DNA of 57,203 bases from a virus (IMGVR_UViG_3300033153_006620:1-57203); one strand, 5' to 3'. Positions 11,062-57,203 are shown, counted from the first letter of the stretch. The notes: generated by a model from the letters alone, not told the origin. Translations and numbers: made by a program.

Positions 11062-11112
11062 TCCTTAATTTTGATTTCCCAGACGCATACATAATATGCG
11101 TTTCGGCCCGTA

Positions 11113-11640
11113 TCAATGGGCCTCGTCAGTGGGTTCCCACGCTTTACTAAACTCTTCATCGGAAAACAATTCTGCTAATCCTGTTATTTGTTTTAATCTT
11201 AATACCTCATCGGGATCCATGCCTAATTCTTTTGCAATTTTTTTTTCATTCCAATTTCTTTTCGACAACTCCAGCACTATGTCAGACATAGATTCAACTT
11301 GATGTTTACCTCTAGCTCTGTTATGCCTAATTGTGGAAGCTATCCGGTCATTACGTTCCGTTCTACTGTTGTTTATAACAACAACCGGTAGATGAGTTAG
11401 TCCTAATTTTTTACCAACTAAATGCCGGTGAAAACCATCTATAACCTGATATTTATCATCAACTTTCCAAACAACTATCGGTTGGGTGAATCCATCAGCT
11501 TTAATGCTTCTTTCTAATAATTTCATTTCAGGCGGAGCTACTTTATTAGGATTATAATCATTAGCCAAAACATTGCGTGTCACTACCCATATAACCTTTG
11601 AAACAGGATGCTTATCAATCCAATTCATATCAGTTTCCAT
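11113..11640 (-). CDS. ParB-like nuclease-domain protein (IbrB-like)
   Basis: DGFHRH and TIRHNRARGKH motifs of the ParB/Srx N-terminal fold; overlaps and follows the PAPS-reductase-like gene. Confidence 0.75.
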   Translation of the reverse strand: METDMNWIDKHPVSKVIWVVTRNVLANDYNPNKVAPPEMKLLERSIKADGFTQPIVVWKVDDKYQVIDGFHRHLVGKKLGLTHLPVVVINNSRTERNDRIASTIRHNRARGKHQVESMSDIVLELSKRNWNEKKIAKELGMDPDEVLRLKQITGLAELFSDEEFSKAWEPTDEAH

Positions 11641-12821
11641 TCTTGCCGCCTTCTTTTCATTATCTTTTTGTATTTGTCATATGCCTCGCTTTTGGTCTGA
11701 GTAAAGCTTAATCCTTTGCACCAATAATCATTCTTTAAAAGAGCCTTGCATATTCTTTTCCAATTCGGTTTATCTTTGGTAATCGCGCCTTCATCAGGTA
11801 TTCCGTTAGGGTATCCTCTATCATAATACCATTTTAAAAAAACCGCTATTTTATTTCTATAATGTTCTTGGGTTTGCTTAGGCATTGACTGTAGTATCAT
11901 TTTAGAAAAAGATTCCCATGTATGTATGTCCGGTTTGGATAATGTAATATTACCGAGTATATTTCCGCTTTCTTTAGCGTATAATGCACCTTGATTCACA
12001 CCATTCACCCTTAGTAATATTTTAGTCCATGTTTCCGGCTCTATAATTTGAAACAGCCATAAGCCTTTTCTTTGGTCGTCTCCATAGGGTTGACAAATTC
12101 GCATTTGATGAATAGTGAGTCCTGCTAAATGCATCCTATCATACAGTCTATTGTAACATTTTTGAGTTTTCGCTATATATATCCAATCATCTCTTGTTCT
12201 CCAATCATATATTGGGTATGCATTATACAAATTGTTACTGCACCACGTTGTCCACTGGTGAGACATTAATGTTTGTTTTCTGGTGCTACATATAGTTCTA
12301 TATCTATTCAGGCTCTCATCGGTTCTTATCCCAACAAAACAGGCTGTTAATTTCCCTTTACCATACCAATGTCCAAATTGAGGGACAAACTCTTCAAACT
12401 CCATACCTTTTTTGAAAAAAGGAAAATAATTAATATCAGTGATGGCGAATTTAGGAGGAGTTCTTACCCACAAATCTTTCACATCTTCATCCCAACATAT
12501 CCAATGAGGTTGATATTGACTTACAGCGTTTCTTAGGTGAAGTGGTAAAGATACCCAAAAAGGATTTATGTAGTCTTTATATAATTTGTACATTTCTAAG
12601 CAATGCTCAATTGTCAGTTTATACTGAGCCTCAAGATCAACAAAAAGAACCCCTATTTTTTTATTGCGTTTAATAGCCTCGTCCATCACTAAGTGAAGCA
12701 TTACCGTGCTATCTTTCCCTCCCGAAAAACTTAAATAGATCATTGGTACGTTATCGAAAACCCATGAAATCCGTTGCTTTGCGGCTTCGTGTACATTTAT
12801 TTCTAATGGGATTTTAGCCAC
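11625..12821 (-). CDS. PAPS-reductase-family (adenine-nucleotide alpha-hydrolase) protein, IbrA-like
   Basis: PP-loop SFSGGKDSTVMLHL near the N-terminus; about 400 aa with a long C-terminal extension; paired with the ParB-like gene. Confidence 0.75.
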   Translation of the reverse strand: MAKIPLEINVHEAAKQRISWVFDNVPMIYLSFSGGKDSTVMLHLVMDEAIKRNKKIGVLFVDLEAQYKLTIEHCLEMYKLYKDYINPFWVSLPLHLRNAVSQYQPHWICWDEDVKDLWVRTPPKFAITDINYFPFFKKGMEFEEFVPQFGHWYGKGKLTACFVGIRTDESLNRYRTICSTRKQTLMSHQWTTWCSNNLYNAYPIYDWRTRDDWIYIAKTQKCYNRLYDRMHLAGLTIHQMRICQPYGDDQRKGLWLFQIIEPETWTKILLRVNGVNQGALYAKESGNILGNITLSKPDIHTWESFSKMILQSMPKQTQEHYRNKIAVFLKWYYDRGYPNGIPDEGAITKDKPNWKRICKALLKNDYWCKGLSFTQTKSEAYDKYKKIMKRRRQEWKLI

Positions 12822-13198
12822 TTGTCAACCTCTTGTTTAGATAATTTTATTACATCTCCGCAATTGTTAATTTTACAAAAATACCTATCAGTATTTTTCC
12901 AGCTTTTAGGTTCACTTACTTCATATATTTTATTTTCATTTAATAGAAAGAAAACATATACCCCCCTACTTCCTTTACTATTTGAATGTGTATAATCAAA
13001 TTTTCCTTTTAAAAAAAAGCGGCTATATTTATAAACAGCATCAAATCCCGTGATTTCAGCGCACCAGTATCTTTTGGGTACGCTACCAATAGCAGCGTAC
13101 CCCAATCCAGGAAGAATCTCGTTATACATATTTGTATAAAACTTTAATGTTTCGTTAAGGTCACTACCTATCGCTTCTAATTTTATTTGTGTAAGCAT
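12803..13198 (-). CDS. Hypothetical protein
   Basis: Co-directional ORF overlapping the next gene. Confidence 0.6.
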   Translation of the reverse strand: MLTQIKLEAIGSDLNETLKFYTNMYNEILPGLGYAAIGSVPKRYWCAEITGFDAVYKYSRFFLKGKFDYTHSNSKGSRGVYVFFLLNENKIYEVSEPKSWKNTDRYFCKINNCGDVIKLSKQEVDKWLKSH

Positions 13199-13211
13199 TA
13201 TGATTAATTAA

Positions 13212-13448
13212 TCAAAAATTGGGGGAATATTCTTCTTTTTCGATCGGTGTATATCCTCTTACAATAACATTACCGCTATGATCCCACATCCGGAAGCCGT
13301 GTTTGAGAGCATGGCGATTACCCACTTGTCCGCCATTAATCGATCGACTGTCAAGACATACGGGAAAATTAGCTCTAACTATTAATTTAACATGAGCTTC
13401 TTTTGTTGCACAAAAAAGACTTTTTTCGTTATAATCATTAATTTTCAT
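13212..13448 (-). CDS. Hypothetical protein (start moved to ATG 13448)
   Basis: GAGGGAATCAAA precedes ATG 13448; the longer version would start inside the promoter. Confidence 0.55.
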   Translation of the reverse strand: MKINDYNEKSLFCATKEAHVKLIVRANFPVCLDSRSINGGQVGNRHALKHGFRMWDHSGNVIVRGYTPIEKEEYSPNF

Positions 13449-13487
13449 TTTGATTCCCTCGTTTGTTGTGTTGTTTAACATGATTAG

Positions 13488-13516
13488 AATATACCACACT
13501 ATGCAACTAATGTCTA
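13488..13516 (-). promoter_or_regulatory. Sigma70-type promoter TAGACA-N17-TGgTATATT (extended -10)
   Basis: -35 at 13511-13516 and -10 at 13488-13493, with TGG immediately upstream of the -10. Confidence 0.55.
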
Positions 13517-13517
13517 C

Positions 13518-13548
13518 TAAATAGTTGATATTTGTTGTAAATAGTTGA
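13518..13548. repeat. Two direct copies of TAAATAGTTGA, 20 bp apart, immediately upstream of the -35
   Basis: 13518-13528 and 13538-13548 are identical 11-mers. Confidence 0.8.
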
Positions 13549-13632
13549 GATAATTTGAGAAGTGGCGGAATTGGGGTGGAATCGGGGTTTTTTAGTGAAA
13601 AATAAATGCCGGATAATTAGGTTTTGGAATGG

Positions 13633-13656
13633 AAAAACCCCAGGTTCAACGAAACC
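13633..13656 (-). terminator. Weak terminator-like hairpin plus U-tract after the GT2-TPR gene
   Basis: Minus-sense GGUUU-CGUU-GAACC, then UGGGGUUUUU. Confidence 0.3.
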
Positions 13657-13685
13657 CAGGTCTTTTCGGTTTAGGAGGTGAAAAT

Positions 13686-14936
13686 CTATGGAGACAATCT
13701 GAATTTTTCTTTTAAGCCGGCTAATTCTGACATTATTTTATCTGATTTTTTTGATCGCCCGATCGCGACATAACAACAAGAAAGCGATGTGTACAAATCT
13801 TCTAAATTCGGGTAAGCTCTTTTTGCTTGCAATAAGCATTTGATGGCCTTTTTATATTTCCGGTCTTTTATGTAGATGTTAGAAAGTCCAATAAACGAAA
13901 ACATTTTTATGGAATCCACGTCAATACCAATAGAACCAGGCTTATAAGGCGTTTCTAGGGCCAATTTAAACCAACGCTCTGCGATTGTGCTATCATTCAA
14001 AATCACATGCAAACGGGCTAGATAGTAGATGGCATTGAGATTATGCTTATTCGATGCAAATGATTCTTCGAGTCTCACGATAGCTCGTTTATACTGTTTT
14101 AAATGCACTAATCCCATGGCAATATTGTAAGGGACCATGGTATGGATATCAGACTGGATTTTCTTTAGATTAGGAATTTTCAGGCACTTCTCATAAATGG
14201 AAATTCCGCGCTCCCATTCTCCAATTGTAAAGTGGGAATCGGCTAATGACATCGTAAAGCTGGGATCCGCACCAATTAGTTCGGGCTCCAAATTTGATAT
14301 TCGAATATTCCGGATAGCCTTTCTTTCGCGCTCCTCCCGGTTTTCGTATCCTGTGTGATAGATTTTGGCCGGTATGTAGTGACAATACAGTCCAAGTTCA
14401 GCGGCAGATCCCATGACTTGTTCATGTATCCGACGCTCAAATCTTATTTTGGGATGATTAGGAAACATTCTTATCTGCACGAAACGGGTTCCTATGGGCT
14501 GGCCGTCATTCGTATTTATAATATTAAATCCGAATATCCCACTTAATGGGGCGGTTTTTAAAAGATTAATCCCTTCGATTGATTCTTTTGGAATGCGGTC
14601 ATCTGCGTCAATCCAAAGAATCCATTTGTGAGATGCCATTTCAATGGATTGGTTTCGGGCAAGCGCGAAGTCGTCTTCCCAATCAGCAAATATCCTTGTT
14701 ATGTTTTTATCATACCCATGTTTAAAATTTCTCACAATTTTACCGGTCTGATCTTTGGAACCCGTATCATTGACAACTATTTGATCGGCTACTGGGATTA
14801 ATGATTCAAGACATTCAAGAATGTTATTCTCCTCATTTCGAACTATCATACACACCGTAAGCCCGTCTTTATAATCGGATTCTAAAGGCTTCTTTATTGT
14901 GCCAAATTTGGAGTTTAGGTCTATGTTATATTTCAT
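13686..14936 (-). CDS. Family-2 (GT-A) glycosyltransferase with a C-terminal TPR-like helical domain
   Basis: LTVCMIVRNEE..VVNDTGSKD..WIDADD (DXD); the C-terminal approx. 200 aa have repeated helical-pair (TPR-like) periodicity. Confidence 0.75.
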   Translation of the reverse strand: MKYNIDLNSKFGTIKKPLESDYKDGLTVCMIVRNEENNILECLESLIPVADQIVVNDTGSKDQTGKIVRNFKHGYDKNITRIFADWEDDFALARNQSIEMASHKWILWIDADDRIPKESIEGINLLKTAPLSGIFGFNIINTNDGQPIGTRFVQIRMFPNHPKIRFERRIHEQVMGSAAELGLYCHYIPAKIYHTGYENREERERKAIRNIRISNLEPELIGADPSFTMSLADSHFTIGEWERGISIYEKCLKIPNLKKIQSDIHTMVPYNIAMGLVHLKQYKRAIVRLEESFASNKHNLNAIYYLARLHVILNDSTIAERWFKLALETPYKPGSIGIDVDSIKMFSFIGLSNIYIKDRKYKKAIKCLLQAKRAYPNLEDLYTSLSCCYVAIGRSKKSDKIMSELAGLKEKFRLSP

Positions 14937-15157
14937 ATTCTACGTACCGAATCGATGATTAACTCACTCTTTTTATAATGGCCTTCAATTTCTTTATTAT
15001 GAGAACTTCCTTCAGCTAAATCTACTCCACAGGAATAAAAAGGACCATTCTGAATTTCATTTAATGAAAAATGAGTTAATTCAAATTCATCAATGATGGT
15101 TATGCCACTCTCTTTGTGTGATTTTGTTATGTATCCGCCGGGATTTAAGCTACTCAT
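14933..15157 (-). CDS. Small hypothetical protein (74 aa), translationally coupled between the radical-SAM and GT2-TPR genes
   Basis: 4-nt overlaps on both sides; no motif recognised. Confidence 0.55.
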   Translation of the reverse strand: MSSLNPGGYITKSHKESGITIIDEFELTHFSLNEIQNGPFYSCGVDLAEGSSHNKEIEGHYKKSELIIDSVRRI

Positions 15158-16176
15158 CTAAAAGATCCTTTATGGCTATTAGCCGGATTCATATCAAAAA
15201 CCCCTCCAATTCTATCCCACACCTTTTCGTATTCATCTGGAACTTTGGTTATGGGTTTTAAATCAGCGCCATCATAAGCGGCCATATAGTTTCGATTCCA
15301 CTTCCCGCAATGAAGTGAAGCTTTACACATCGAACATGGAAAGCCTTCGATTTCAACGCCTCTAGCAAGAGACTGAGCGTTGCGCCACATGGACATATAA
15401 GAGTCGTTAGGCCATATGTTGTTGTAACACCATTCAAATGTATCATAAACAACGTGCAGCGCATTAGTAACGTAACGCCAATATTTAGGTTTAAGATGGC
15501 AGAAAGGCTGATATCTTATAGTAGTCATAACACCTTCACTATGACAAATATCCATAGCCTCCTCAATGTATCTTTGGAGTTTTTCCGGGTGAACTGCTAT
15601 TTTCCGGGTATCCTCATGATTGTGATAATGCGGAAGAAAATTAAGCGCTACGAAATGCTTTACACCGTGGTCACATGCATACCTTGCAATATCGGGTAAT
15701 TGCTTATAATTATCTTGCTGCAAAGTGGTGTTAGAGCGCCATGGAAGCTTTTTTTCATGAAGCCAGTAAATAAGATTACCTTGGTTCTTTGCTGCTGTCT
15801 TAGTGCCTGTGACCTTATTTAAAGTGTCACCTAAGCCGTGTAGGCTTATATGCAAATGATCGAGCCCAGTTTCATATAATAATTTATACCGGTCAAGGCT
15901 CAAATTACCGCTTGTAATAATCGAAAACTTCATTTTTTGTGAGTTCACGAATTTAGTTAGATTATATATATCCGGATACATCATCGTTTCGCCCCATCCC
16001 ACAGCGACCACTTGATTACACCCACCCTCTTTGCCTATAATAATTTCACTTTTAATTTCTTCTAAAGGCTTGTCATATCCAGATTTAAAATCGTCAGAAT
16101 TGAAATGAAAACAGAAATTGCAATTATTAATACATTTCTTGGTTATTTCTATTCCTATTTTTTTACAGGGTTGCAT
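15154..16176 (-). CDS. Radical SAM enzyme
   Basis: CX3CX2C (CINNCNFC) at aa 15-22; GWGETMMYP (GGE-type SAM motif); C-terminal Cys cluster CSMCKASLHC. Confidence 0.8.
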   Translation of the reverse strand: MQPCKKIGIEITKKCINNCNFCFHFNSDDFKSGYDKPLEEIKSEIIIGKEGGCNQVVAVGWGETMMYPDIYNLTKFVNSQKMKFSIITSGNLSLDRYKLLYETGLDHLHISLHGLGDTLNKVTGTKTAAKNQGNLIYWLHEKKLPWRSNTTLQQDNYKQLPDIARYACDHGVKHFVALNFLPHYHNHEDTRKIAVHPEKLQRYIEEAMDICHSEGVMTTIRYQPFCHLKPKYWRYVTNALHVVYDTFEWCYNNIWPNDSYMSMWRNAQSLARGVEIEGFPCSMCKASLHCGKWNRNYMAAYDGADLKPITKVPDEYEKVWDRIGGVFDMNPANSHKGSFR

Positions 16177-16529
16177 TCGTATTTACCTACTGATAAAGAT
16201 TTAAGATTAAATTTTTTAACAATATTTCTTCTCATTATTTTCGCTTGTTTGCTGGCCAGAGAACTTTCACAGGAATCAATAGGAATGGACTTTCCTGTAG
16301 GGATACCGCCGTGAAGCCATGTACCATTATTCATTCTGCTAATAAATTCTTTTTGCTTTCTTACGTATGCTTTGAAATTCAGGGAATTAATAACCTTTTT
16401 CATCGATAAAGCGGTTATATTCATTTGTTTTGTGAGTTTATTAAAACATTTAACTGTAATTTCAACTCTCCTCGCAAAGCGTTTTACAGGGCTTTCTAGT
16501 GAGTGATATGTGTTTTCAGTTTCTAGCAC
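16155..16529 (-). CDS. Hypothetical protein
   Basis: GTG start right after AGGAGAGGG; overlaps the radical-SAM start. Confidence 0.5.
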   Translation of the reverse strand: MLETENTYHSLESPVKRFARRVEITVKCFNKLTKQMNITALSMKKVINSLNFKAYVRKQKEFISRMNNGTWLHGGIPTGKSIPIDSCESSLASKQAKIMRRNIVKKFNLKSLSVGKYECNPVKK

Positions 16530-17834
16530 TCACCCTCTCCTAACTAATTCATGATACAACGTTTTACTAGTCCAGTTATTAACAATAAGCTCAAAATCCG
16601 GTATTCTTTCTTTATAGTAAATAGATTTTGTATTGAGCCAATTATCAAGATACACCTGGGTATGAGCTACTGATTGCATTATCATATCCACATCTACATC
16701 AACTAACTTTCCCTTTTTCCATTTATAGTCTGTGATTTTGAAATGAGGTTCAAGCAATCCAATGGCTGTCATATCCCTATTCATCCTAATAAAATTCTGA
16801 TAGCACTCTTCAACATTAGGCTTTGTTTCTGCCATCATATCACCTGGAACCCACTCGGATAAGTCGCCGATTCTTTCCCCCTTTTTGTTCACAATGATTT
16901 TTTCCGTTCTTGCAAAATGTTGAGGCATTGAATTTAATATGTAATACATACCATCACTTAATAATCCGGTATCGTATTTAGTTCTTAAATTACCTATCCT
17001 CATCATGCTGTCAGGGTCTCTTGCTGGATTAGCCTCTAAACGTACGCCACATTCTTTTATACGTGCTTGCACTTCCTCATCTTCAATGTACTCCATGTCG
17101 GGTAAGACTCTTATAAACACAACAACATACCGACCCCTCTCACTGGGAGAAACTCTTAGCATCCTAAAATGAGGTTGCAAAGCATCTATGATTTTTTCTA
17201 AACAAAAGTCTTCTTTTTGCTTTGGCGTCCAATTTCCTTCTTTGGCAAATACTTTACAACTCGAATCATTACTTGATATAGGACCATCCAGAATTAAATA
17301 TTTCTCAGTCAATGCGGCAAGTTTTTTTGCCCACAAATAAGGCTCTGCACCGTATAGCAACGCGTCTTTATAAAAATGATGAATGACAGATCCACAGTAG
17401 ACAACATCAAATTTATTATAAAAGGCTCCACAATATTTTAATAAGCAATCATTAGCCTTCTTGAGTCCTTCATAATCCAGATTATTAAAATATTCCCATG
17501 ATTTGTCAATGCTAATGTCTCGCATTTCACCATGAATAAATTTGATATTATCAATGTTATGATATTTTCTTACATCCTCTGAAAATTGATGATATTCCGG
17601 GGCCACCTCATACCCCACTACTTTATCAAACAAATGCCTATACCCAAAGCACATCAAACCTTTGTTTGAGCCTATATCAAGTAATGTTTCACCACCCTGC
17701 AATAATTCTGGCATAGTCTTTTTTGCAAGCTCAAATCTATTTACGGATTCACTTCCATAAGGCTTAAGAGTTTCTATGTTATAATGTTGATTCCCTGGGT
17801 ATGTTAATTCTACCTCTCTTTGTGCTAGGCTCAT
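16530..17834 (-). CDS. Class I SAM-dependent methyltransferase with a large C-terminal domain of unknown function
   Basis: Motif I LLDIGSNKGLMCFG and acidic post-I VVGYEV. Confidence 0.65.
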   Translation of the reverse strand: MSLAQREVELTYPGNQHYNIETLKPYGSESVNRFELAKKTMPELLQGGETLLDIGSNKGLMCFGYRHLFDKVVGYEVAPEYHQFSEDVRKYHNIDNIKFIHGEMRDISIDKSWEYFNNLDYEGLKKANDCLLKYCGAFYNKFDVVYCGSVIHHFYKDALLYGAEPYLWAKKLAALTEKYLILDGPISSNDSSCKVFAKEGNWTPKQKEDFCLEKIIDALQPHFRMLRVSPSERGRYVVVFIRVLPDMEYIEDEEVQARIKECGVRLEANPARDPDSMMRIGNLRTKYDTGLLSDGMYYILNSMPQHFARTEKIIVNKKGERIGDLSEWVPGDMMAETKPNVEECYQNFIRMNRDMTAIGLLEPHFKITDYKWKKGKLVDVDVDMIMQSVAHTQVYLDNWLNTKSIYYKERIPDFELIVNNWTSKTLYHELVRRG

Positions 17835-18553
17835 GCTTTCCTTTCTGGTATTTCAATTACCGGTTTTTTCTGTTTAAATAAAAGCTGTGAATGAACGATC
17901 CTTATAGGACGGTCTCCATTTATCTTTCTAAATAATGCCAAATCTTCCCTATGTATTCTATGGGCAGTATCCCTCGATCTCTCCCTTACTATAACACCGC
18001 CTCTATGTTCCGTATTTGTTGCGTCTGAAAACGACCATTTCTCAATCCCATATTTCTGGACAAATCTCAATTGGTGTTCTAAATCACCTATGTATAAATT
18101 GTACCTCCAATCCACAGGACATTCTAGATAAGTCTCTGTAGTCATGATAAAAGAATATAACATAAACCCGGCAGCTATTGACCTTTTCCGGACTTCCCGG
18201 CCTGAATAATATTGATTAATCATAAGCATGTGACCGTCTTGATATCCCCTTAGATGGTCCTCTAGCCATGCGGGATTAGGAAATGTCATGTCTTGGTGAA
18301 TATACGCCATGTATTTAGTTTTAACCTTTAACGCCCCTATGTGGAAAGCTTCGAATACTCCCACCCGTTCTTTTAAATAAATGGTATCGATTCCGCGCCC
18401 ACGTAAATATTCTAATGTTTCGGGATTAGAGAAATTATCAACAACTAATAATTTGTAAGGATAATTCGTTTTTTCGAGAGAATTTAAACAATTCACAGTG
18501 TCATCCAACCCATTATAAGTAACCATTACAATTGTGATATCTTTATTTTCCAT
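17831..18553 (-). CDS. Family-2 glycosyltransferase
   Basis: ITIVMVTYNG..CLNSL...LLVVDNFSNPET N-terminal GT2 signature. Confidence 0.7.
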   Translation of the reverse strand: MENKDITIVMVTYNGLDDTVNCLNSLEKTNYPYKLLVVDNFSNPETLEYLRGRGIDTIYLKERVGVFEAFHIGALKVKTKYMAYIHQDMTFPNPAWLEDHLRGYQDGHMLMINQYYSGREVRKRSIAAGFMLYSFIMTTETYLECPVDWRYNLYIGDLEHQLRFVQKYGIEKWSFSDATNTEHRGGVIVRERSRDTAHRIHREDLALFRKINGDRPIRIVHSQLLFKQKKPVIEIPERKA

Positions 18554-18566
18554 AAATTAATCTGCC

Positions 18567-19121
18567 TTATTTTTTTAAGAATACGGTTATAGATCCGATC
18601 GTATCGATTCTTTTTATGTCCTGTCTTGTTAATAATTCCGCAACCATATATTTGTTCACAGACCACTCATTATGGGTGCTATCATGCAATAGAATATGCC
18701 CTCCATTTTCAATTTTCGGAAACCAAGATTCAAAATCATTTTTCACACCTTTATATGAATGGTCCGCGTCTATGAATAGAAAATCTATGCTTTTATCATC
18801 GAATAAATTGGCTGATTCGGATGTATTTTTTTTATACACATCAATATTATGTTTCTGTGCTAAAATATTTTTAACATCTTTGTAATAATGCGGTTCATCT
18901 TTAAATAAGTCTTTGTAATGCGATTTCGTTCCACATTCTATTTTATCGATATCTTCAAATATATCAAACGTAGATACCTTGGCTGCTATTTCTGATAGAA
19001 CCCAAGCCCCTCCCCCGAAATAAGTTCCAAGCTCAACAGCATGTTTTTTTTTCGTCGCGTATTTTTTTAAACAAGCCACATCCCGAGATCCAAGAAGCTT
19101 TTTTGGTGCAGGTTTAATCAT
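18567..19121 (-). CDS. Class I SAM-dependent methyltransferase (small O-methyltransferase type)
   Basis: VELGTYFGGGAWVLS motif I and FLFIDADHSY..GGHILLHD. Confidence 0.7.
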   Translation of the reverse strand: MIKPAPKKLLGSRDVACLKKYATKKKHAVELGTYFGGGAWVLSEIAAKVSTFDIFEDIDKIECGTKSHYKDLFKDEPHYYKDVKNILAQKHNIDVYKKNTSESANLFDDKSIDFLFIDADHSYKGVKNDFESWFPKIENGGHILLHDSTHNEWSVNKYMVAELLTRQDIKRIDTIGSITVFLKK

Positions 19122-19179
19122 TATTCACCGGAGAACGTGGTTTGCCTTTCATTGGCGGTTGCATAGGTAATGTCATTTG

Positions 19180-19812
19180 TCATTCCCTCACGTAAATCTC
19201 ATTAATATCCAAATCAATTATTTTAACATACCCGTTATCATTCATAAGCTTTTCAATGGGGAATGTTTTAAAGTTGTTTTCGATGTCAAATACTTCGATA
19301 TCGTATGTACAGAAACCATTAGCCTTTGAGAAAGCTTCTAATAGTGGATATTCTGCACCCTCTACATCAATACTCATATAGTCTATATGACACATTTTGG
19401 CCTCATACAACGCATCGTATAGAGGGACCATTTGAACTTTAGTGGTTTCTATTTGTGACGGAGCAATGTGTTTATCCATACGCTCTTTGTGCTTGTCTTC
19501 GATATAATCTTCTACACCTGACCATCCAATCAATCCACCGCTAACAGATGTAAAATTAACCATAGCTTTCTTGTCACCTATAGCATAATTAAGACATTTA
19601 CAATCCCGGTTTTTTGTTAGCTGCTTGTATGACTCTGGATGAGGTTCTATACATAAACCAGTCCATCCCATTTCACGCTCGAAATAAAGGCTGTTAGAGT
19701 GTAGCAAGCCATCGAGAGCGCCGAATTCGACAAATACCCCGTCTTGTTTGCCTTTGAATAGGTTTTCTGATAGCCATTTATCCTGGTTGTGTTCGCTTGA
19801 GTATTTATTCAT
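19180..19812 (-). CDS. FkbM-family methyltransferase
   Basis: VFVEFGALDG..GLCIEPHPESYKQLTKN..IDYMSIDVEGAEYPLL pattern. Confidence 0.7.
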   Translation of the reverse strand: MNKYSSEHNQDKWLSENLFKGKQDGVFVEFGALDGLLHSNSLYFEREMGWTGLCIEPHPESYKQLTKNRDCKCLNYAIGDKKAMVNFTSVSGGLIGWSGVEDYIEDKHKERMDKHIAPSQIETTKVQMVPLYDALYEAKMCHIDYMSIDVEGAEYPLLEAFSKANGFCTYDIEVFDIENNFKTFPIEKLMNDNGYVKIIDLDINEIYVRE

Positions 19813-20323
19813 TATTTTCCTTTTCTAGCCAGTTCATGATATCACCCAAATAGTCAGTATGCATTATAATACCGTCTTTGCGTTGGTTCTGATTCCATTG
19901 TTCGTATTTTTTAAAATAGAATTTAAACATAGCTTTTATTAATTGATCTTCGCGCTTTTCCATATCAATTGAGCCATGCAATATTACTGCTTTATTATCT
20001 GGAAAAACGTGCTCTAAATGTTCCTTTACCTTGTTATGCTCCCTATTACAAACGTTCGGCATTGTCAAAACGATAATATCACCTTTTTTCAAATTGAGTT
20101 TGCTTATCGATTGTATTTGTGGTACGCCTAGCCATTCCCCTAGAAAATCATAGAGTTTTTGAGCTTCGGGCTTAGTGAGTTGTACAGAATCATCACAACG
20201 ATAATCCTTATCTTCAACAAATTCACTTGGTCCCGATCTTAGGTGTAATTCATTTTCTTCAATGAAAAACATTAATGAATCCCCATCATTCTGTTTTATC
20301 ACTTTTATTGGTTTGTCAGTCAT
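19805..20323 (-). CDS. Hypothetical protein (start moved to ATG 20323)
   Basis: AAGGAACATAAAA precedes ATG 20323. Confidence 0.55.
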   Translation of the reverse strand: MTDKPIKVIKQNDGDSLMFFIEENELHLRSGPSEFVEDKDYRCDDSVQLTKPEAQKLYDFLGEWLGVPQIQSISKLNLKKGDIIVLTMPNVCNREHNKVKEHLEHVFPDNKAVILHGSIDMEKREDQLIKAMFKFYFKKYEQWNQNQRKDGIIMHTDYLGDIMNWLEKENNE

Positions 20324-20470
20324 TTTTATGTTCCTTACCTTTGCATATATTCCGATCTTTGTTGCACCCATGGCATGGACATTCCCCTGAATTAATCAGC
20401 GCCATAACTAGATGCCCACGCAAAGTACAATCTTTAGGTATATATCCTTGACTAATAGCCATTTTCAGCA

Positions 20471-21862
20471 TTATATCATCCATTTTTTCACAATCTCACT
20501 TTCCCGAACTGAAACCGGCAAATCTTTTAATTCAATAACTTTAACACCTTTCCACGCTTTTTCATGTCCTTCGGCGGTATGAAAATTATCAGCATTAGGT
20601 AATTTATCCCATTTCTCCCTTTTCCATTCAACCAAATCAACATGCCCATAAGCGTCCTTTTCAGCTTCATAAATATTTTCAATCTTTTGGAATAGTGTTT
20701 TTTCGTCTTCCCTAACATAAGTAAAATGATGGAATCTAAAATCATTGCATCTCAATACCCCCTGTATACCACATCCTCGGTGCCCTTTAAAGCTGTTTGA
20801 TTGCAACCTATAAAGCACGATAGGAGCTAATGATTCAGGCGGTGATATCCTATAGAAAGGTGATTTTATGTAAGTGTGCATAAAACAGGAATAAGCATTG
20901 GCTTTCTGATTTTCATTAGCAAAATGTATTATTCCTTTTAAATCTTTTCCAGGCCAAACCTCATCGGTATCGAAGAAAAGACATAATTTAGCGTCAAAGT
21001 TTTTTATTATATAATCCAGGCCGAAAAGATATTGCTTTAATTGATTCTGAGATGTGTAATCTAGATTGACTATTTTATTCTCATTGTCATGCGATTTAGC
21101 CCATTTTTCAATTATTGGCTTGACATCATTACCCCACTCCCCGCACCAAGACAAATCTGAATGCACAAATACAATCTTTTCGACATGAGGATATATGCCT
21201 TCAATAGCCGGGATTATAAACTCTTTTCCCCGCCACACCTTGCATAATGCCACAACTTTTTCCATTTTTGCTCCCCATTTTTTCTGAAAATATGCTTTGT
21301 TGGTATTCCAATAGAATCCGCCCTGGTTTTTTGCTTCGTTTAAATGAGTTAATTTGCACCGGTTATCAGTTACGAAATACTTATCATGTCCGTATTTTTC
21401 TAGCATTTGCCTACAAAAATCATCGTCTTCAAATCCACTACCGATAAATCCTTCATCGAATCGTAATTCGGATTTTCGGAAAGCTATACACGCGGTAGGG
21501 ATTTTCGTTGAAGCTATTAAGTCAACATTTAAATCATAGTTTTCCACCATTGTATAAGCGCATTTACCGTTTTTATTCATTAGCCGGGCAGATGATATTA
21601 TTACATTTTCATCGGTTAATAAAGCCCGGACCAAATCGATATCCCACCCCCAATAGAACCCGGTCATATCATCATCCATCATTATAACGATGTCTGAAGT
21701 GGCCCTGGCAAGCCCTTCGTTACGATTTTCAGAAGCACTGCCATCTATCCCGGTGAAAATTATCTGGCCTTCAGATACGCGGGTTAACGCTACGTCATTA
21801 ACCTGATTTTGAACTTCAGATAAATGTTTGCATGATGGAATTATGATGTCAATTTTAATCAT
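20471..21862 (-). CDS. Two-domain glycosyltransferase (N-terminal GT2 with DDD; second GT-A-like half)
   Basis: IDIIIPS..GIDGSASENRNEG..IVIMMDDDM; the second half has LCLFFDTDEVW (DXD-like). Confidence 0.65.
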   Translation of the reverse strand: MIKIDIIIPSCKHLSEVQNQVNDVALTRVSEGQIIFTGIDGSASENRNEGLARATSDIVIMMDDDMTGFYWGWDIDLVRALLTDENVIISSARLMNKNGKCAYTMVENYDLNVDLIASTKIPTACIAFRKSELRFDEGFIGSGFEDDDFCRQMLEKYGHDKYFVTDNRCKLTHLNEAKNQGGFYWNTNKAYFQKKWGAKMEKVVALCKVWRGKEFIIPAIEGIYPHVEKIVFVHSDLSWCGEWGNDVKPIIEKWAKSHDNENKIVNLDYTSQNQLKQYLFGLDYIIKNFDAKLCLFFDTDEVWPGKDLKGIIHFANENQKANAYSCFMHTYIKSPFYRISPPESLAPIVLYRLQSNSFKGHRGCGIQGVLRCNDFRFHHFTYVREDEKTLFQKIENIYEAEKDAYGHVDLVEWKREKWDKLPNADNFHTAEGHEKAWKGVKVIELKDLPVSVRESEIVKKWMI

Positions 21863-22236
21863 TTTAAAAATTCTTTCCAGTTGCTATTCTGCAATATATG
21901 AAAATACGATCCGTCAACGAACCCCTTATAAAATTCATCTTCCGTACATTTTACATTTATCCGGTACATGCCAGATTTAAAAGCCGATAAAAAATGTAGC
22001 GGCGGTTTTTTTATAAAAAGAGAACTACTAGGCGAACAATAATAAAATGAGTGATCTTCGCCATTGCGCGTGTAGTCGTACCCACGTCCGTCAAACTCTA
22101 CAATTTGTTTTAAAAAATAAATGTGATACGTTATAGCACAATCGCTGCCGTAAGACGAACATCCCTCGGGATTCATCAAAAGCATATAAGGCCTTATTTT
22201 ATGACCGTCTTTTGTTTTTAGTGATAATTCTTTCAT
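21859..22236 (-). CDS. Hypothetical protein
   Basis: 4-nt overlaps with both flanking glycosyltransferase genes. Confidence 0.6.
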   Translation of the reverse strand: MKELSLKTKDGHKIRPYMLLMNPEGCSSYGSDCAITYHIYFLKQIVEFDGRGYDYTRNGEDHSFYYCSPSSSLFIKKPPLHFLSAFKSGMYRINVKCTEDEFYKGFVDGSYFHILQNSNWKEFLK

Positions 22237-23015
22237 CTTTTCAGCTTCAAATAAAGTTCATTCTCAATAAAACTTGATGCTTCAATACCGTGCAATTCTT
22301 TAATTTTCAGAAGCCCTTTTTTAGTAGTCTCAAGGTCAAATTTTCCATTATCCCGGTGATGCACATAAACGGAGGTATCAACAAAGGGATGAAGTTTATT
22401 TTTCGCGGCCCTTATGATCCATTCTGTTAAGCAAATATCTTCCGGCAAATCCTCGAATTCCCCAACAAAATCCCACATTACACGGTGTATTAAAAAGCAG
22501 AAACTTGATATTTTCATAGGAGCCACTTTTTTAGTGTACTCCCTGGTGACTTCTGATTGAATCTCTGCAACGGACCTTATATCATTGACTACTTTGTATT
22601 CCTCATATGATTTTAAAGCCTGGTCGGAGTTAGATGAACATGTCAGAGGGCCTATGCATGATGCCATAGGCTTTGTCTTTATCCCTTCAAATAAATTCAC
22701 ATTCCACATCGGGGAAACTATTGTGTCATCATGGAGTACTATGACCAATTGAAGCTCATTTTCTTTAACTTTCCGGGTTTTCATCATACCGGCATTAACC
22801 GATAAAGCAAAACTAAGCTTTTCTTTTGAAAGAATATAACGGGTTTTCTGAAAATAATTATTCCAAAAGTAACCTTTACGGATTCCAGAGTGCCCGACTA
22901 CAATAATTTCATAATCTCCGCCGGTATTTTCTCTTACGGATTTTAAGCATAAATCAAGATTAGTCTGGTTGGTGGCTACGATTATAATAGAATATTTAGG
23001 TTTCAATTTTCTCAC
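22233..23015 (-). CDS. Family-2 glycosyltransferase
   Basis: YSIIIVATNQ..CLKSV..YEIIVVGH and VLHDD (DXD). Confidence 0.7.
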   Translation of the reverse strand: MRKLKPKYSIIIVATNQTNLDLCLKSVRENTGGDYEIIVVGHSGIRKGYFWNNYFQKTRYILSKEKLSFALSVNAGMMKTRKVKENELQLVIVLHDDTIVSPMWNVNLFEGIKTKPMASCIGPLTCSSNSDQALKSYEEYKVVNDIRSVAEIQSEVTREYTKKVAPMKISSFCFLIHRVMWDFVGEFEDLPEDICLTEWIIRAAKNKLHPFVDTSVYVHHRDNGKFDLETTKKGLLKIKELHGIEASSFIENELYLKLKR

Positions 23016-51620: not shown

Positions 51621-52811
51621 TCACCCCTTTATCACAGCCAAGGGAGACAATTCAACGACAATTTCCACTAAGTCACTTTGATTTTCCATAACAGTAAATA
51701 TGTCTTTGTACGCCCCCGGAGCCTCATCCAAATTGGACTTATGCCGTATTCCATGAATTATACCTTGAGAATCTAAGATATGTTTTTCGTCTTCAAAATT
51801 AAGATTTTTAATAGCTTTGGTTCTACTCATTTTTCTACCGGCTCCGTGAGAACATGAATTAAATGATTCAGGGTTGCCTCTGCCTTTTGTTATATAGCTT
51901 TTAGTCCCTTGTGAGCCCGGTATTATTCCCAATTCCCCTTCACGAGCGGATGTAGCGCCTTTGCGATGTACAATAACATTCTTCCCAAAATGATTTTCAT
52001 ATTGTGCAAAATTATGATGTATGTTTATTTCCTTGTCAAAATCACAATCCAATATATCCGTAAAAGATTCTTTTATTTTATCCAACATTAATAGCCTGTT
52101 CGCATATGCAAATTCGAGAGCGTAATTCATGGCCTCTAAATATTCTTTAGATTCAGAGGTATCGATAGGGAGAAATGCAAGACCGTCATCACCTTTAAAA
52201 TCCGGTATATTCGAGAACCATTTTTTGCATAATTTCTGAGCTATTTTGTTGTATTCATTTGCTATTTTATAGCCAAAATTTCTTGAGCCAGAATGAACCA
52301 TTATCCATATAAACCCGTCAGATCCTCTCTGTATTTCGATAAAATGATTTCCGCCGCCCAACGTTCCCAATTGTTTCCGGGCCGATTTAATATTTTCATT
52401 GACTACTTTTATTAGTCCCGGATATCTTTCAAAACCCTTCCAGTATTGATCTTTTTTGTGGTGATTAAATCCTACCGGTATTTTCCCGCGAATACCGCCC
52501 TTGAATTCCGCAGATCCTCCCATTATTCCTTTAAGCTGCTCATTTGTTATTTCTGTCAGAGAGGTTTTCACGGCGCACATCCCACACCCGATATCCACAC
52601 CGACAGCGTTCGGGACTACTACATTTTCCGTAGCCATAACACCGCCTATTGGCATTCCATAACCCTGATGTGAGTCTGGCATGATAGCAATATGTCGAAA
52701 AACAAATGGAAGGTTGGCTAGATTTTTGGCTTGTTCTAAGGCCCCGGTTTCAATATCATTTAACCATAACTTTACGGGTAACTTTTCGGTATCTATGACA
52801 TATTCCATCAT
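51621..52811 (-). CDS. rtcB: RtcB-family RNA ligase (3'-phosphate/5'-hydroxyl)
   Basis: Full motif set: GVDIGCGM, GGGNHFIE, HSGSRNFG, HRKGAT, SCSHGAGR. GGAGG lies at the MMEY start; the exact start (52811 or 52808) is uncertain. Confidence 0.95.
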   Translation of the reverse strand: MMEYVIDTEKLPVKLWLNDIETGALEQAKNLANLPFVFRHIAIMPDSHQGYGMPIGGVMATENVVVPNAVGVDIGCGMCAVKTSLTEITNEQLKGIMGGSAEFKGGIRGKIPVGFNHHKKDQYWKGFERYPGLIKVVNENIKSARKQLGTLGGGNHFIEIQRGSDGFIWIMVHSGSRNFGYKIANEYNKIAQKLCKKWFSNIPDFKGDDGLAFLPIDTSESKEYLEAMNYALEFAYANRLLMLDKIKESFTDILDCDFDKEINIHHNFAQYENHFGKNVIVHRKGATSAREGELGIIPGSQGTKSYITKGRGNPESFNSCSHGAGRKMSRTKAIKNLNFEDEKHILDSQGIIHGIRHKSNLDEAPGAYKDIFTVMENQSDLVEIVVELSPLAVIKG

Positions 52812-52831
52812 ACCTCCATTTCTGATTTTTA

Positions 52832-52923
52832 CGGCAATCCCCAAAGGCATTCGTGCATGGCAGCCTAGACGGGGATTACCGCCGAAAATTATCAGACAGT
52901 TAATTGTTTGTTTGAGCCATGCA
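52832..52923 (-). promoter_or_regulatory. Structured 5' leader of rtcB with nested or competing inverted repeats
   Basis: 11-bp stem CGGTAATCCCC/GGGGATTGCCG (52881-52871 with 52842-52832, one G-U). Its loop carries GCCATGCA, complementary to TGCATGGC at 52923-52916. Confidence 0.5.
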
Positions 52924-52930
52924 TGATTGT

Positions 52931-52959
52931 ATTATATAAAACTATTATTCAGATTTCAA
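52931..52959 (-). promoter_or_regulatory. Sigma70-type promoter TTGAAA-N17-TATAAT for rtcB
   Basis: -35 at 52954-52959 and a perfect -10 at 52931-52936; near-duplicate of the 53126-53155 promoter. Confidence 0.65.
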
Positions 52960-52981
52960 GTAATTTGTTGGATTATTTGGG

Positions 52982-53114
52982 AGTGGCAGGCGGGAATTGA
53001 ACCCGCAACCTTTCGGGGCTATCGAAGTACTTGAAGTCCATGGCCTCGTTTCTTTGTTACCCTTTACTCTGGTCCGGCGCACTATCGGTTTGCAAACCTC
53101 ATGCGCGCTGCCAC
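52982..53114 (-). ncRNA. Oversized (133-nt) tRNA-like RNA: an intron-containing tRNA or a tRNA mimic
   Basis: The 7-bp acceptor-type pairing GTGGCAG/CTGCCAC abuts a canonical T arm GCGGG-TTCAATT-CCCGC. A promoter lies about 5-8 nt upstream. The body is 45-55 nt too long and no clean cloverleaf can be drawn by hand. Confidence 0.6.
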
Positions 53115-53125
53115 ATGTGTAATGT

Positions 53126-53155
53126 AATATACTAAAACTAATTCTCGGATTTCAA
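53126..53155 (-). promoter_or_regulatory. Sigma70-type promoter TTGAAA-N18-TATATT for the tRNA-like RNA
   Basis: -35 at 53150-53155 and -10 at 53126-53131; the -10 ends 11 nt before the acceptor 5' end. Confidence 0.6.
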
Positions 53156-56906: not shown

Positions 56907-57203
56907 TCAGCCTATTCTTTTATCGCAAATCGAAAGTAATATCTCTTTGTTTTCATCCCAAAATTTTAATGCGTTATAATCCATTTTTTCTATGCGAGAA
57001 TTCTTAAATTTTTTCCAGTTTTCAAAAGAATGAAATTCACATCCTATTTTCATATGTTCGTCAAATATGATAATATTCCAATGTAAGCCTAAAATTTGAA
57101 TGGGAGTTTCTTTTATAATTATTTTTTCGTCATTGGTCCCTCTCAAATCGGCCCCGCTCAAATCGGCCCCGCTCAAATCGGCCCCGCTCAAATCGGACCT
57201 GTT
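56907..57203 (-). CDS. Pentapeptide-repeat protein, C-terminal part (same gene as 1-408; 57090-57203 duplicates 1-114)
   Basis: ..GADLSGADLSGADLRG followed by an 80-aa non-repeat C-terminal domain; stop at 56907. Confidence 0.85.
   Translation of the reverse strand, partial: NRSDLSGADLSGADLSGADLRGTNDEKIIIKETPIQILGLHWNIIIFDEHMKIGCEFHSFENWKKFKNSRIEKMDYNALKFWDENKEILLSICDKRIG
57090..57203. repeat. Terminal direct repeat, identical to 1-114
   Basis: Base-for-base comparison. Confidence 0.95.

Follow-up and report, generated by a model that had tools for sequence, protein, structure and literature searches.

Introduction

Two described systems come closest to the RNA reported here. In Salmonella, the rsr-yrlBA-rtcBA operon carries YrlA, a transfer RNA (tRNA)-like RNA, upstream of rtcB, and YrlA has been proposed to be a competitive inhibitor of an anticodon nuclease (PMC7790460). 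YrlA is built in the order T arm, closed acceptor-like stem-loop and D arm, has its Ro motif near the 5' end, and is encoded at most approximately 4 kb from the Ro60 gene (PMC4201824). In M. smegmatis, YrlA is cleaved by RNase P and receives CCA (PMC4201824, PMC7790460). The second system is T4 RNAC, a stable RNA of phage T4 whose function is still without explanation (PMC3014915, PMC9697503). We analyzed a viral sequence of 57,203 nucleotides (nt), IMGVR_UViG_3300033153_006620:1-57203, the whole of which is referred to here as the window. An earlier note, made from the sequence alone, had singled out an oversized tRNA-like RNA gene directly upstream of rtcB on the minus strand, named RNA1 here (52982-53114), and had offered three readings of it: an intron-containing tRNA spliced with help from RtcB, a tRNA mimic or decoy working alongside RtcB, and a UGA suppressor. 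The sequence evidence supported such a gene, and the first and third readings were not supported. RNA1 is not a decoding tRNA. The second reading, which we infer from the anatomy of RNA1 and from its gene neighborhood, was the only one of the three to survive.

Anatomy of RNA1

RNA1 was resolved into the following parts.

52982-53114, minus strand: RNA1 gene, 133 nt, consisting of a 132-nt helix-bounded body and the discriminator U52982.
53108-53114, minus strand: 5' strand of the acceptor stem, GUGGCAG, pairing probability 0.84-1.0.
52983-52989, minus strand: 3' strand of the acceptor stem, CUGCCAC, forming a perfect helix of 7 base pairs (bp) with 53114-53108.
52990-53006, minus strand: T arm, GCGGG-UUCAAUU-CCCGC, pairing probability 0.96-1.0.
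53077-53106, minus strand: hairpin 1, 30 nt, at the position of the D arm, with a 6-bp GCGCAU/GUGCGC stem, an internal loop and an inner hairpin.
53007-53076, minus strand: purine-rich central domain, 70 nt, in place of the anticodon arm and with no well-defined fold.

The acceptor helix adjoined the T arm without a gap, exactly where the earlier note had drawn both, so that a 7-bp acceptor stem is stacked on a 5-bp T stem with a loop of the UUCRANY form, as in a tRNA. The T arm carries the equivalents of G53-C61, U54, U55, C56 and A58. We searched for a T arm made of Watson-Crick pairs only, with a TTCRANN loop and an abutting 7-bp acceptor stem, in dinucleotide-preserving shuffles of the whole window, and found a match in 1 of 300. 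When G-U pairs were permitted in the same search, 54% of the shuffles matched; the significance of the arrangement therefore depends on its perfect, GC-rich pairing. RNA1 was also one of three GC-rich islands in the genome, with a GC content of 0.549 compared to a mean of 0.375 (top 0.4% of 133-nt segments), and the limits of this island, 52978-53117, coincided with the ends of RNA1.

The interior of RNA1 was less like a tRNA. The GCGCA/TGCGC stem that had been noted around a 12-nt palindrome, GGTTTGCAAACC (53098-53087), was present, with pairing probabilities of 0.76-1.0. In hairpin 1 as drawn here, the outer GCGCAU/GUGCGC stem had pairing probabilities of 0.76-0.85, and the inner GGUU-UGCA-AACC hairpin formed from the palindrome had probabilities of 0.74-1.0. 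The central domain includes GGACUUCAAGU (53039-53029) and a palindrome, AAGUACUU.

Promoters and processing signals

Three further features define the transcription unit.

53126-53155, minus strand: promoter P1, TTGAAA-N18-TATATT, 10 of 12 consensus positions, a near-duplicate of P2.
52931-52959, minus strand: promoter P2, TTGAAA-N17-TATAAT, 11 of 12 consensus positions, a duplicate of P1, driving the rtcB leader.
51621-52805, minus strand: rtcB coding sequence, 394 amino acids (aa) plus stop.

The order on the minus strand was the end of a 107-aa open reading frame (ORF) at 53138, P1, RNA1 (53114-52982), P2, a leader of approximately 118 nt, and rtcB. Both of the near-duplicate sigma70-type promoters claimed to flank the element were found in place. 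The duplication extends over approximately 65 nt, from an A/T-rich upstream stretch through the first transcribed bases (CATG..TGGC), and their local alignment score was 53, compared to 21 +/- 4 for 2000 shuffles, the highest of which reached 44. Genome-wide, only P2 resembled P1. Consensus-level promoter matches as such were no more frequent in the region than expected (13 against 13.6), and the duplication is therefore the informative fact. The second copy lies 196 nt downstream of the first, ahead of rtcB, which gives RNA1 and rtcB one copy each.

By the usual spacing after the -10 box, transcription from P1 would start approximately 4-5 nt ahead of G53114. Position -1 of RNA1 (53115) is a U, the preferred context for RNase P, and the 3' trailer is CCCAAAU. 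No terminator-like site was found on the minus strand between RNA1 and rtcB. Transcripts from P1 should thus continue into rtcB, and the 3' end of RNA1 must come from processing.

One further repeat was observed in this region. When inverted, the segment GGACTTCAAG within RNA1 (53039-53030) agrees at 9 of 10 positions with a box, CTTGAAATCC (53156-53147; 52965-52952), that holds the -35 hexamer of P1 and of P2. In a read-through transcript from P1, 12 of 14 positions could pair between 53038-53025 and 52965-52952, in competition with the tRNA-like fold; this pairing is marginal against chance, with approximately 0.2 such pairs expected by our estimate.

RNA1 does not decode

Detection of tRNA genes was performed with ARAGORN and the Rfam tRNA models; Rfam was run at gathering thresholds on the whole window and at E <= 10 on the locus only. 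ARAGORN called 0 tRNA genes in the whole window. On RNA1 itself it returned nothing, whether with the intron search that the earlier note had proposed or at 70-80% of threshold, and at 60% of threshold it produced two mutually exclusive junk models. The Rfam tRNA model (RF00005), also proposed there as a check, gave a match of 17.8 bits, below its gathering score of 29, in which only the acceptor stem and T arm were aligned and two 47-nt insertions stood at the places of the D arm and anticodon arm. RNA1 thus has the acceptor stem and T arm of a tRNA, but no D arm, no anticodon arm, no above-threshold score, and a length outside the range of approximately 70-95 nt. Neither Rfam run returned a ribozyme, riboswitch, T-box or Y RNA, and at E <= 10 the tmRNA (transfer-messenger RNA) model matched only the bare T arm.

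Segments of the interior were then deleted computationally. Among 4278 variants with a single deletion, 1 was called a tRNA by ARAGORN, compared to 0-9 in 10 controls with shuffled interiors; among 549,549 variants with two deletions, 267 were called, compared to 0-1677 in such controls (median approximately 160). These calls lie within the range of the controls, which indicates that the real interior has no advantage over random ones once a good acceptor stem and T arm are given. The sequence likened to the anticodon loop of tRNA-Sec and opal suppressors, GGACTTCAAGT (53039-53029), was present, and the pairing of GAGTA with TACTT around 28 looped-out nt could be drawn, although ARAGORN produced it at 60% of threshold only; neither was better than chance. 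The arm that would present UCA, AUGGA-CUUCAAG-UACUU, paired at 3 of 5 positions with a probability of 0.00-0.05, and forcing it cost about 7 kcal/mol. Comparison with tRNA-Sec gave a 7/5 geometry rather than 8/5 or 9/4, a discriminator U rather than G73, and a 6-bp stem enclosing 18 nt where a 6-bp D stem with a 4-nt loop is expected. Since RNA1 has no anticodon arm, it cannot read codons.

Splicing by RtcB would call for an endonuclease. Domain scans covered 40 ORFs, including every ORF of at least 150 aa, and left aside approximately 55 small ORFs, none longer than 125 aa; a splicing endonuclease domain was not found among the 40.

The suppressor reading had been tied to an in-frame TGA at 6080-6078. 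This TGA is real, and it interrupts a conserved gene: the frame 6188-5847 (minus strand) encodes a 113-aa ASCH-like protein with a single internal TGA, and the segment past the TGA lacks an ATG or GTG at which it could start. The read-through product aligned across the stop with two full-length homologs, P0124 (40% over 111 aa) and P0127 (42% over 103 aa), in which the residue aligned with the stop is Arg or Leu. The interruption can be accounted for by a nonsense change of one base (CGA or TTA to TGA), by leaky termination or by a sequencing error, and nothing beyond a simple nonsense mutation is required. Elsewhere in the genome, TGA serves as an ordinary stop and ends many genes, and no genome-wide stop-codon reassignment was seen. 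Nothing connects the TGA at 6080-6078 to RNA1.

Proposed role of RNA1

RNA1 is probably a real tRNA-like RNA, expressed from P1. As it cannot decode, we read it as a tRNA mimic in the RtcB pathway: a non-decoding, tRNA-derived RNA that would be matured by host enzymes and cotranscribed with rtcB. We put the probability of this reading as a whole at roughly 45%. The specific role of a decoy is considerably less probable than the existence of the RNA.

According to this proposal, P1 would transcribe RNA1, and the same transcript would run through P2 and the leader into rtcB. The features by which tRNA-processing enzymes recognize their substrates are present in RNA1, namely the 12-bp stack of acceptor stem and T arm, the U at -1, G53-C61, U54, U55, C56 and A58, and the stack could be recognized by RNase P, 3'-end trimming enzymes, the CCA-adding enzyme and TruB/TrmA. 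Host RNase P would cut before G53114; the 3' end would then be trimmed and given CCA, and the T loop modified, to yield a stable RNA1 of approximately 133 nt. RNA1 might then compete for or occupy a host nuclease directed at tRNA or a tRNA-binding defense factor. Alternatively, RNA1 may be a substrate that is resealed by RtcB.

A bolder version of the proposal, which we regard as unlikely, is that RNA1 and RtcB form a two-gene counter-defense module, independent of Ro60, in which RNA1 is a non-permuted, stand-alone counterpart of YrlA. The acceptor/T-arm half would have been kept for host maturation and stability, and another domain would have replaced the anticodon half. That substitute domain might bait or block a tRNA-cleaving nuclease or a tRNA-sensing immune factor, with RtcB resealing the cuts.

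Several observations weigh against a tRNA mimic in the RtcB pathway. No loop of RNA1 convincingly mimics an anticodon loop, and hence no target nuclease can be named. Every pairing probability in the central domain was 0.43 or lower, with several alternative folds within 1 kcal/mol; in one of these, CGG/CCG closes the central domain and produces a cloverleaf-like four-way junction. Whole RNA1 was no more stable than its shuffles (z-score -0.76). A homolog of RNA1 was not found in IMG/VR, in JGI metagenome loci, in 185,579 species genomes, in 50,697 phage records or in approximately 70 rtcB loci, so that RNA1 is known from one sequence, with no covariation or conservation to count. Finally, the closest relatives of this RtcB (74% identity) had no intergenic RNA, which indicates that RtcB does not need RNA1.

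Searches for relatives

The rtcB loci that were compared came from IMG/VR contigs (L001-L010), metagenomes (35 loci), genomes (25 loci) and annotated phages (4). A covariance model built on RNA1 (R1), run over 360 kb of loci, matched only RNA1 itself. BLAST against the phage records gave matches confined to the 3' ends of tRNAs, and only the 3' 40 nt of RNA1 (the T arm and the 3' acceptor strand) were similar to phage tRNAs. DNA patterns, five in IMG/VR and one in the species genomes, returned nothing beyond one identity of 22 nt: the stretch CCATGGACTTCAAGTACTTCGA of RNA1 is identical to 5595-5616 of L076 (IMGVR_UViG_2870837851_000001). That match is the start (MDFKYF...) of an ORF of approximately 124 aa on an unrelated viral contig of 66% GC, with GC-ending codons, no flanking similarity, and no rtcB in the 12 kb examined. 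The lack of flanking similarity and the GC-ending codons lead us to judge the identity a coincidence.

The phage terminase and the ORF upstream of RNA1 had no relatives in IMG/VR, and the latter had no relative among 5.8 billion proteins. The phage is otherwise a singleton.

The rtcB gene and the phage genome

The next gene was correctly named in the earlier note. RtcB is a typical member of PF01139 with 8000 homologs, the nearest of them 74-77% identical; the nearest cellular relatives were 55-60% identical and came from Bacteroidota, Omnitrophota, Desulfobulbaceae and Patescibacteria. The rtcB start used here was chosen from the alignment to homologs of 393-396 aa, and the source gene call starts at 52850. 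Ordinary tRNA genes were found approximately 30-200 nt from rtcB in several phage and bacterial relatives, as listed below by locus.

L016, 2393-2469, same strand as rtcB: tRNA-Leu-UAA, 32 nt upstream of the rtcB start.
L036, 2311-2388, and L067, 1311-1388, same strand as rtcB: tRNA-His-GUG, upstream of rtcB.
L018, 2363-2439; L060, 1318-1389 and 2662-3216; and L070, 2709-2929, opposite strand: flanking tRNAs.

The opposite-strand flanking tRNAs include tRNA arrays immediately downstream of rtcB. These neighbors are suggestive of a recurrent association of tRNA genes with rtcB.

The leader between P2 and rtcB (52806-52930) contains a second structured element.

52822-52896, minus strand: rtcB leader hairpin, long and imperfect, z-score -3.7, with 0 of 200 shuffles folding equally well.

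The hairpin contains inverted repeats I4 and I2 and stops 6 nt short of the GGAGG ribosome-binding site. It had no Rfam match, and no homolog of it was found. At the start of the P2 leader, 12 of the 14 bases at 52929-52916 are complementary to those in the hairpin's apical loop (52861-52848), and pairing of the two would form a pseudoknot.

The contig ends carry a 114-bp terminal direct repeat (1-114 and 57090-57203), which marks the assembly as circularly closed and the genome as complete. The genome encodes an HK97-type capsid, portal, terminase and tape-measure protein. The 40 scanned ORFs yielded no integrase, no Ro60 and no RNA-repair enzyme besides RtcB. Two other regions were noted. 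A 15-nt GC-rich unit, CCCGCTCAAATCGGC, is repeated in tandem 19 times at 49-332, with 92% matches; the array lies partly inside the 114-bp repeat and could be a replication origin or a packaging site. A block at approximately 11100-23000 (minus strand) encodes a ParB-N domain protein, a PAPS-reductase/DUF3440 protein, a radical SAM enzyme, three methyltransferases and four family-2 glycosyltransferases, one with TPR repeats. In this siphovirus-like genome, it could be a module for modification of DNA or of surface glycans.

Alternative explanations

RNA1 could be the relic of a phage tRNA that stood before rtcB, lost its D and anticodon arms, and left a remnant with no function. Intact tRNAs occupy the same position in relatives, as in L016, and traces of the missing arms can be drawn: AUGGACUUCAAG corresponds, in its loop and on its 5' side, to an anticodon arm such as that of the L016 tRNA-Leu (AUGGA-CUUAAAA-UCCAU), although the 3' strand no longer pairs, and a short arm of 4 bp (AGCC/GGUU), similar to the variable arm of type-II tRNAs, can be placed before the T arm with a probability of 0.23-0.30. 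The unstructured center and the lack of detected homologs would also fit decay. However, decay should strike the rest of the gene too, and all 12 pairs of the minihelix, the T-loop consensus and the promoter (10 of 12) are intact. A relic would also have had to gain approximately 55 extra nt, its deletion variants recover a tRNA no more often than shuffled interiors do, and the GC island extends beyond the tRNA-like ends to cover all of RNA1. We consider a relic unlikely, while giving it weight.

Somewhat less likely again is a purely cis-acting role, in which the tRNA-like fold would be a processing or stability signal within the rtcB leader and cuts by RNase P/Z would set the 5' end of the mRNA. 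No terminator separates RNA1 from rtcB, P1 and P2 both feed the gene, and the very stable leader hairpin (z-score -3.7) suggests engineered mRNA processing; the tRNA of L016, which ends 32 nt before the rtcB start, offers a parallel. However, the better promoter, P2, lies downstream of RNA1, so that RNA1 is dispensable for transcription of rtcB, complementarity between RNA1 and the leader was not significant (p = 0.48), and relatives express rtcB without any leader.

It is improbable that the locus holds no RNA gene at all, and that RNA1 is instead a chance inverted repeat with a captured tRNA 3' fragment (an attP-like site or debris) or a small ORF, MDFKYFDSPERLRVQFPPATPK. Phage attachment sites often copy the 3' ends of tRNAs, an ATG ORF of 22 codons and a GTG ORF of 45 codons overlap RNA1, and the 22-nt identity lies at the start of the L076 ORF. 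The matching 5' acceptor strand makes a chance origin unlikely, and an attachment site has against it both the lack of an integrase among the 40 scanned ORFs and the 24-nt T-arm/acceptor string, which had 0 exact matches in the 185,579 species genomes, a set from which the true host may be missing. The L076 match, without flanking similarity, has the GC-ending codons typical of high-GC coding DNA. The 22-codon ORF (ATG at 53042) is also unlike the phage genes, with a GC content at third codon positions of 0.67 compared to 0.32, the minor codon used in all four two-codon pairs checked (Asp, Phe, Lys, Tyr), and a spacing of just 2 nt between GAGG and ATG.

A functional but unusual tRNA, one that either suppresses opal (UGA) stops or is resealed by RtcB after losing an intervening sequence, is very improbable. 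CUUCAAG resembles the anticodon loop of selC-type tRNAs such as that of E. coli, the 6-bp stem after the acceptor stem may be likened to the D stem of tRNA-Sec, RtcB is encoded by the adjacent gene, and the ASCH-like gene aligns through its stop to full-length homologs. Against this reading stand the results given above: ARAGORN and Rfam were negative or below threshold with and without introns, deletion scans equaled their controls, the UCA arm hardly formed, the discriminator is U where tRNA-Sec has G, no splicing endonuclease was detected among the 40 scanned ORFs, and the Arg and Leu at the stop position fit a single-base nonsense change in a genome where TGA ends many genes.

The least probable alternative is a YrlA-type Y RNA tethering Ro60, as in rsr-yrlBA-rtcBA operons: RNA1 does lie directly upstream of rtcB as a tRNA-like non-coding RNA, as in Salmonella (PMC7790460), and CCCCGAAAGG resembles the Ro-binding motif GNCGAAN0-1G save for its first base, but this segment sits just before the T arm instead of at the 5' end, YrlA is circularly permuted (PMC4201824) whereas the ends of RNA1 form an acceptor stem in normal tRNA order, no TROVE/Ro60 protein was among the scanned ORFs, and no Y RNA family in Rfam matched at E <= 10, although a YrlA model in Rfam was unconfirmed. 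Two other candidates were rejected: RNA1 and the rtcB leader are not paralogs, as their promoters alone are related and their bodies align no better than shuffles, and an antisense or sponge RNA is contradicted by complementarity to phage transcripts and to the rtcB leader that did not exceed chance.

Comparison with known tRNA-like RNAs

Ordinary phage tRNAs near rtcB share the position of RNA1 (L016, L036 and L067), and the acceptor stem and T arm of RNA1 are of normal tRNA quality. RNA1 differs from them in having no D or anticodon arm and in being 133 nt long rather than 73-90 nt. Phage tRNAs can counter host anticodon nucleases by replacing the tRNAs that these cut.

The topology of RNA1 is also that of tmRNA, with a 5' acceptor strand, a large insert, a T arm and a 3' acceptor strand, and both have a purine/A-rich single-stranded stretch. 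However, tmRNAs are longer than 230 nt and need a G-U pair at 3:70 for charging with alanine, whereas RNA1 has G3-C70, its insert is not closed by a long helix, and it lacks both pseudoknots and a plausible reading frame for a tag. A tmRNA was rejected on these grounds, with ARAGORN -m negative at 70% of threshold and an Rfam match limited to the 17 nt of the T arm.

T4 RNAC (species 1 RNA, rnaC; AF158101 70908-71046) was discovered some fifty years ago. It is 139 nt long, compared to 133 nt for RNA1, and in both a terminal helix abuts a canonical T arm, which in RNAC is CCGGG-UUCGAAU-CCCGG. Inside RNAC, a long 5' hairpin is joined to a second one by an A/U-rich linker, with neither a D nor an anticodon arm, and RNAC is not called as a tRNA. 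Unlike RNA1, it is encoded within a cluster of tRNA genes and matures from the tRNA precursor, and its terminal helix has two U-U mismatches where that of RNA1 is perfect. The tRNA-repair enzymes of T4 are Pnkp and Rnl1, not RtcB. The RNA1 model R1 did not match rnaC in L046, and the resemblance is architectural only.

We made one observation on RNAC itself. In T4 rnaC (L046 1911-2001, minus strand), an internal CGGAACG pairs with the 3' CGUUUCG, with one G-U pair, so that the 3' 91 nt alone produce a better acceptor/T-arm minihelix than the annotated 139-nt ends do. The Rfam tRNA-Sec model scored 17.5 bits on a 91-93-nt version of RNAC.

YrlA, like RNA1, is a tRNA-like non-coding RNA upstream of rtcB whose T arm has the conserved bases of a tRNA, and YrlA is cotranscribed with rtcB. 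It occurs in many other bacteria and in Ro-encoding mycobacteriophages. The acceptor of YrlA is closed by a loop and its ends form the Ro-binding stem, whereas RNA1 has the native tRNA order with free acceptor ends, and no sequence or covariance-model similarity between the two was detected.

How host nucleases cleave tRNA, and how phages repair or bypass the damage, is actively studied in research on phage defense. The roles of YrlA beside rtcB and of T4 RNAC remain to be explained. With apparently no Ro60 in this 57-kb phage, its minimal module of promoter, RNA and rtcB would offer a simple setting for studying the action of a tRNA mimic beside an RNA ligase. Even as a decayed tRNA, RNA1 would show that tRNA genes recur beside the phage and bacterial rtcB genes of this clade. 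RNA1 is homologous to neither YrlA nor T4 RNAC, and we have filed it with the tRNA-like small RNAs of RNA repair and phage tRNA regions. Its closest analogue in gene context is YrlA, and its closest analogue in architecture is T4 RNAC.

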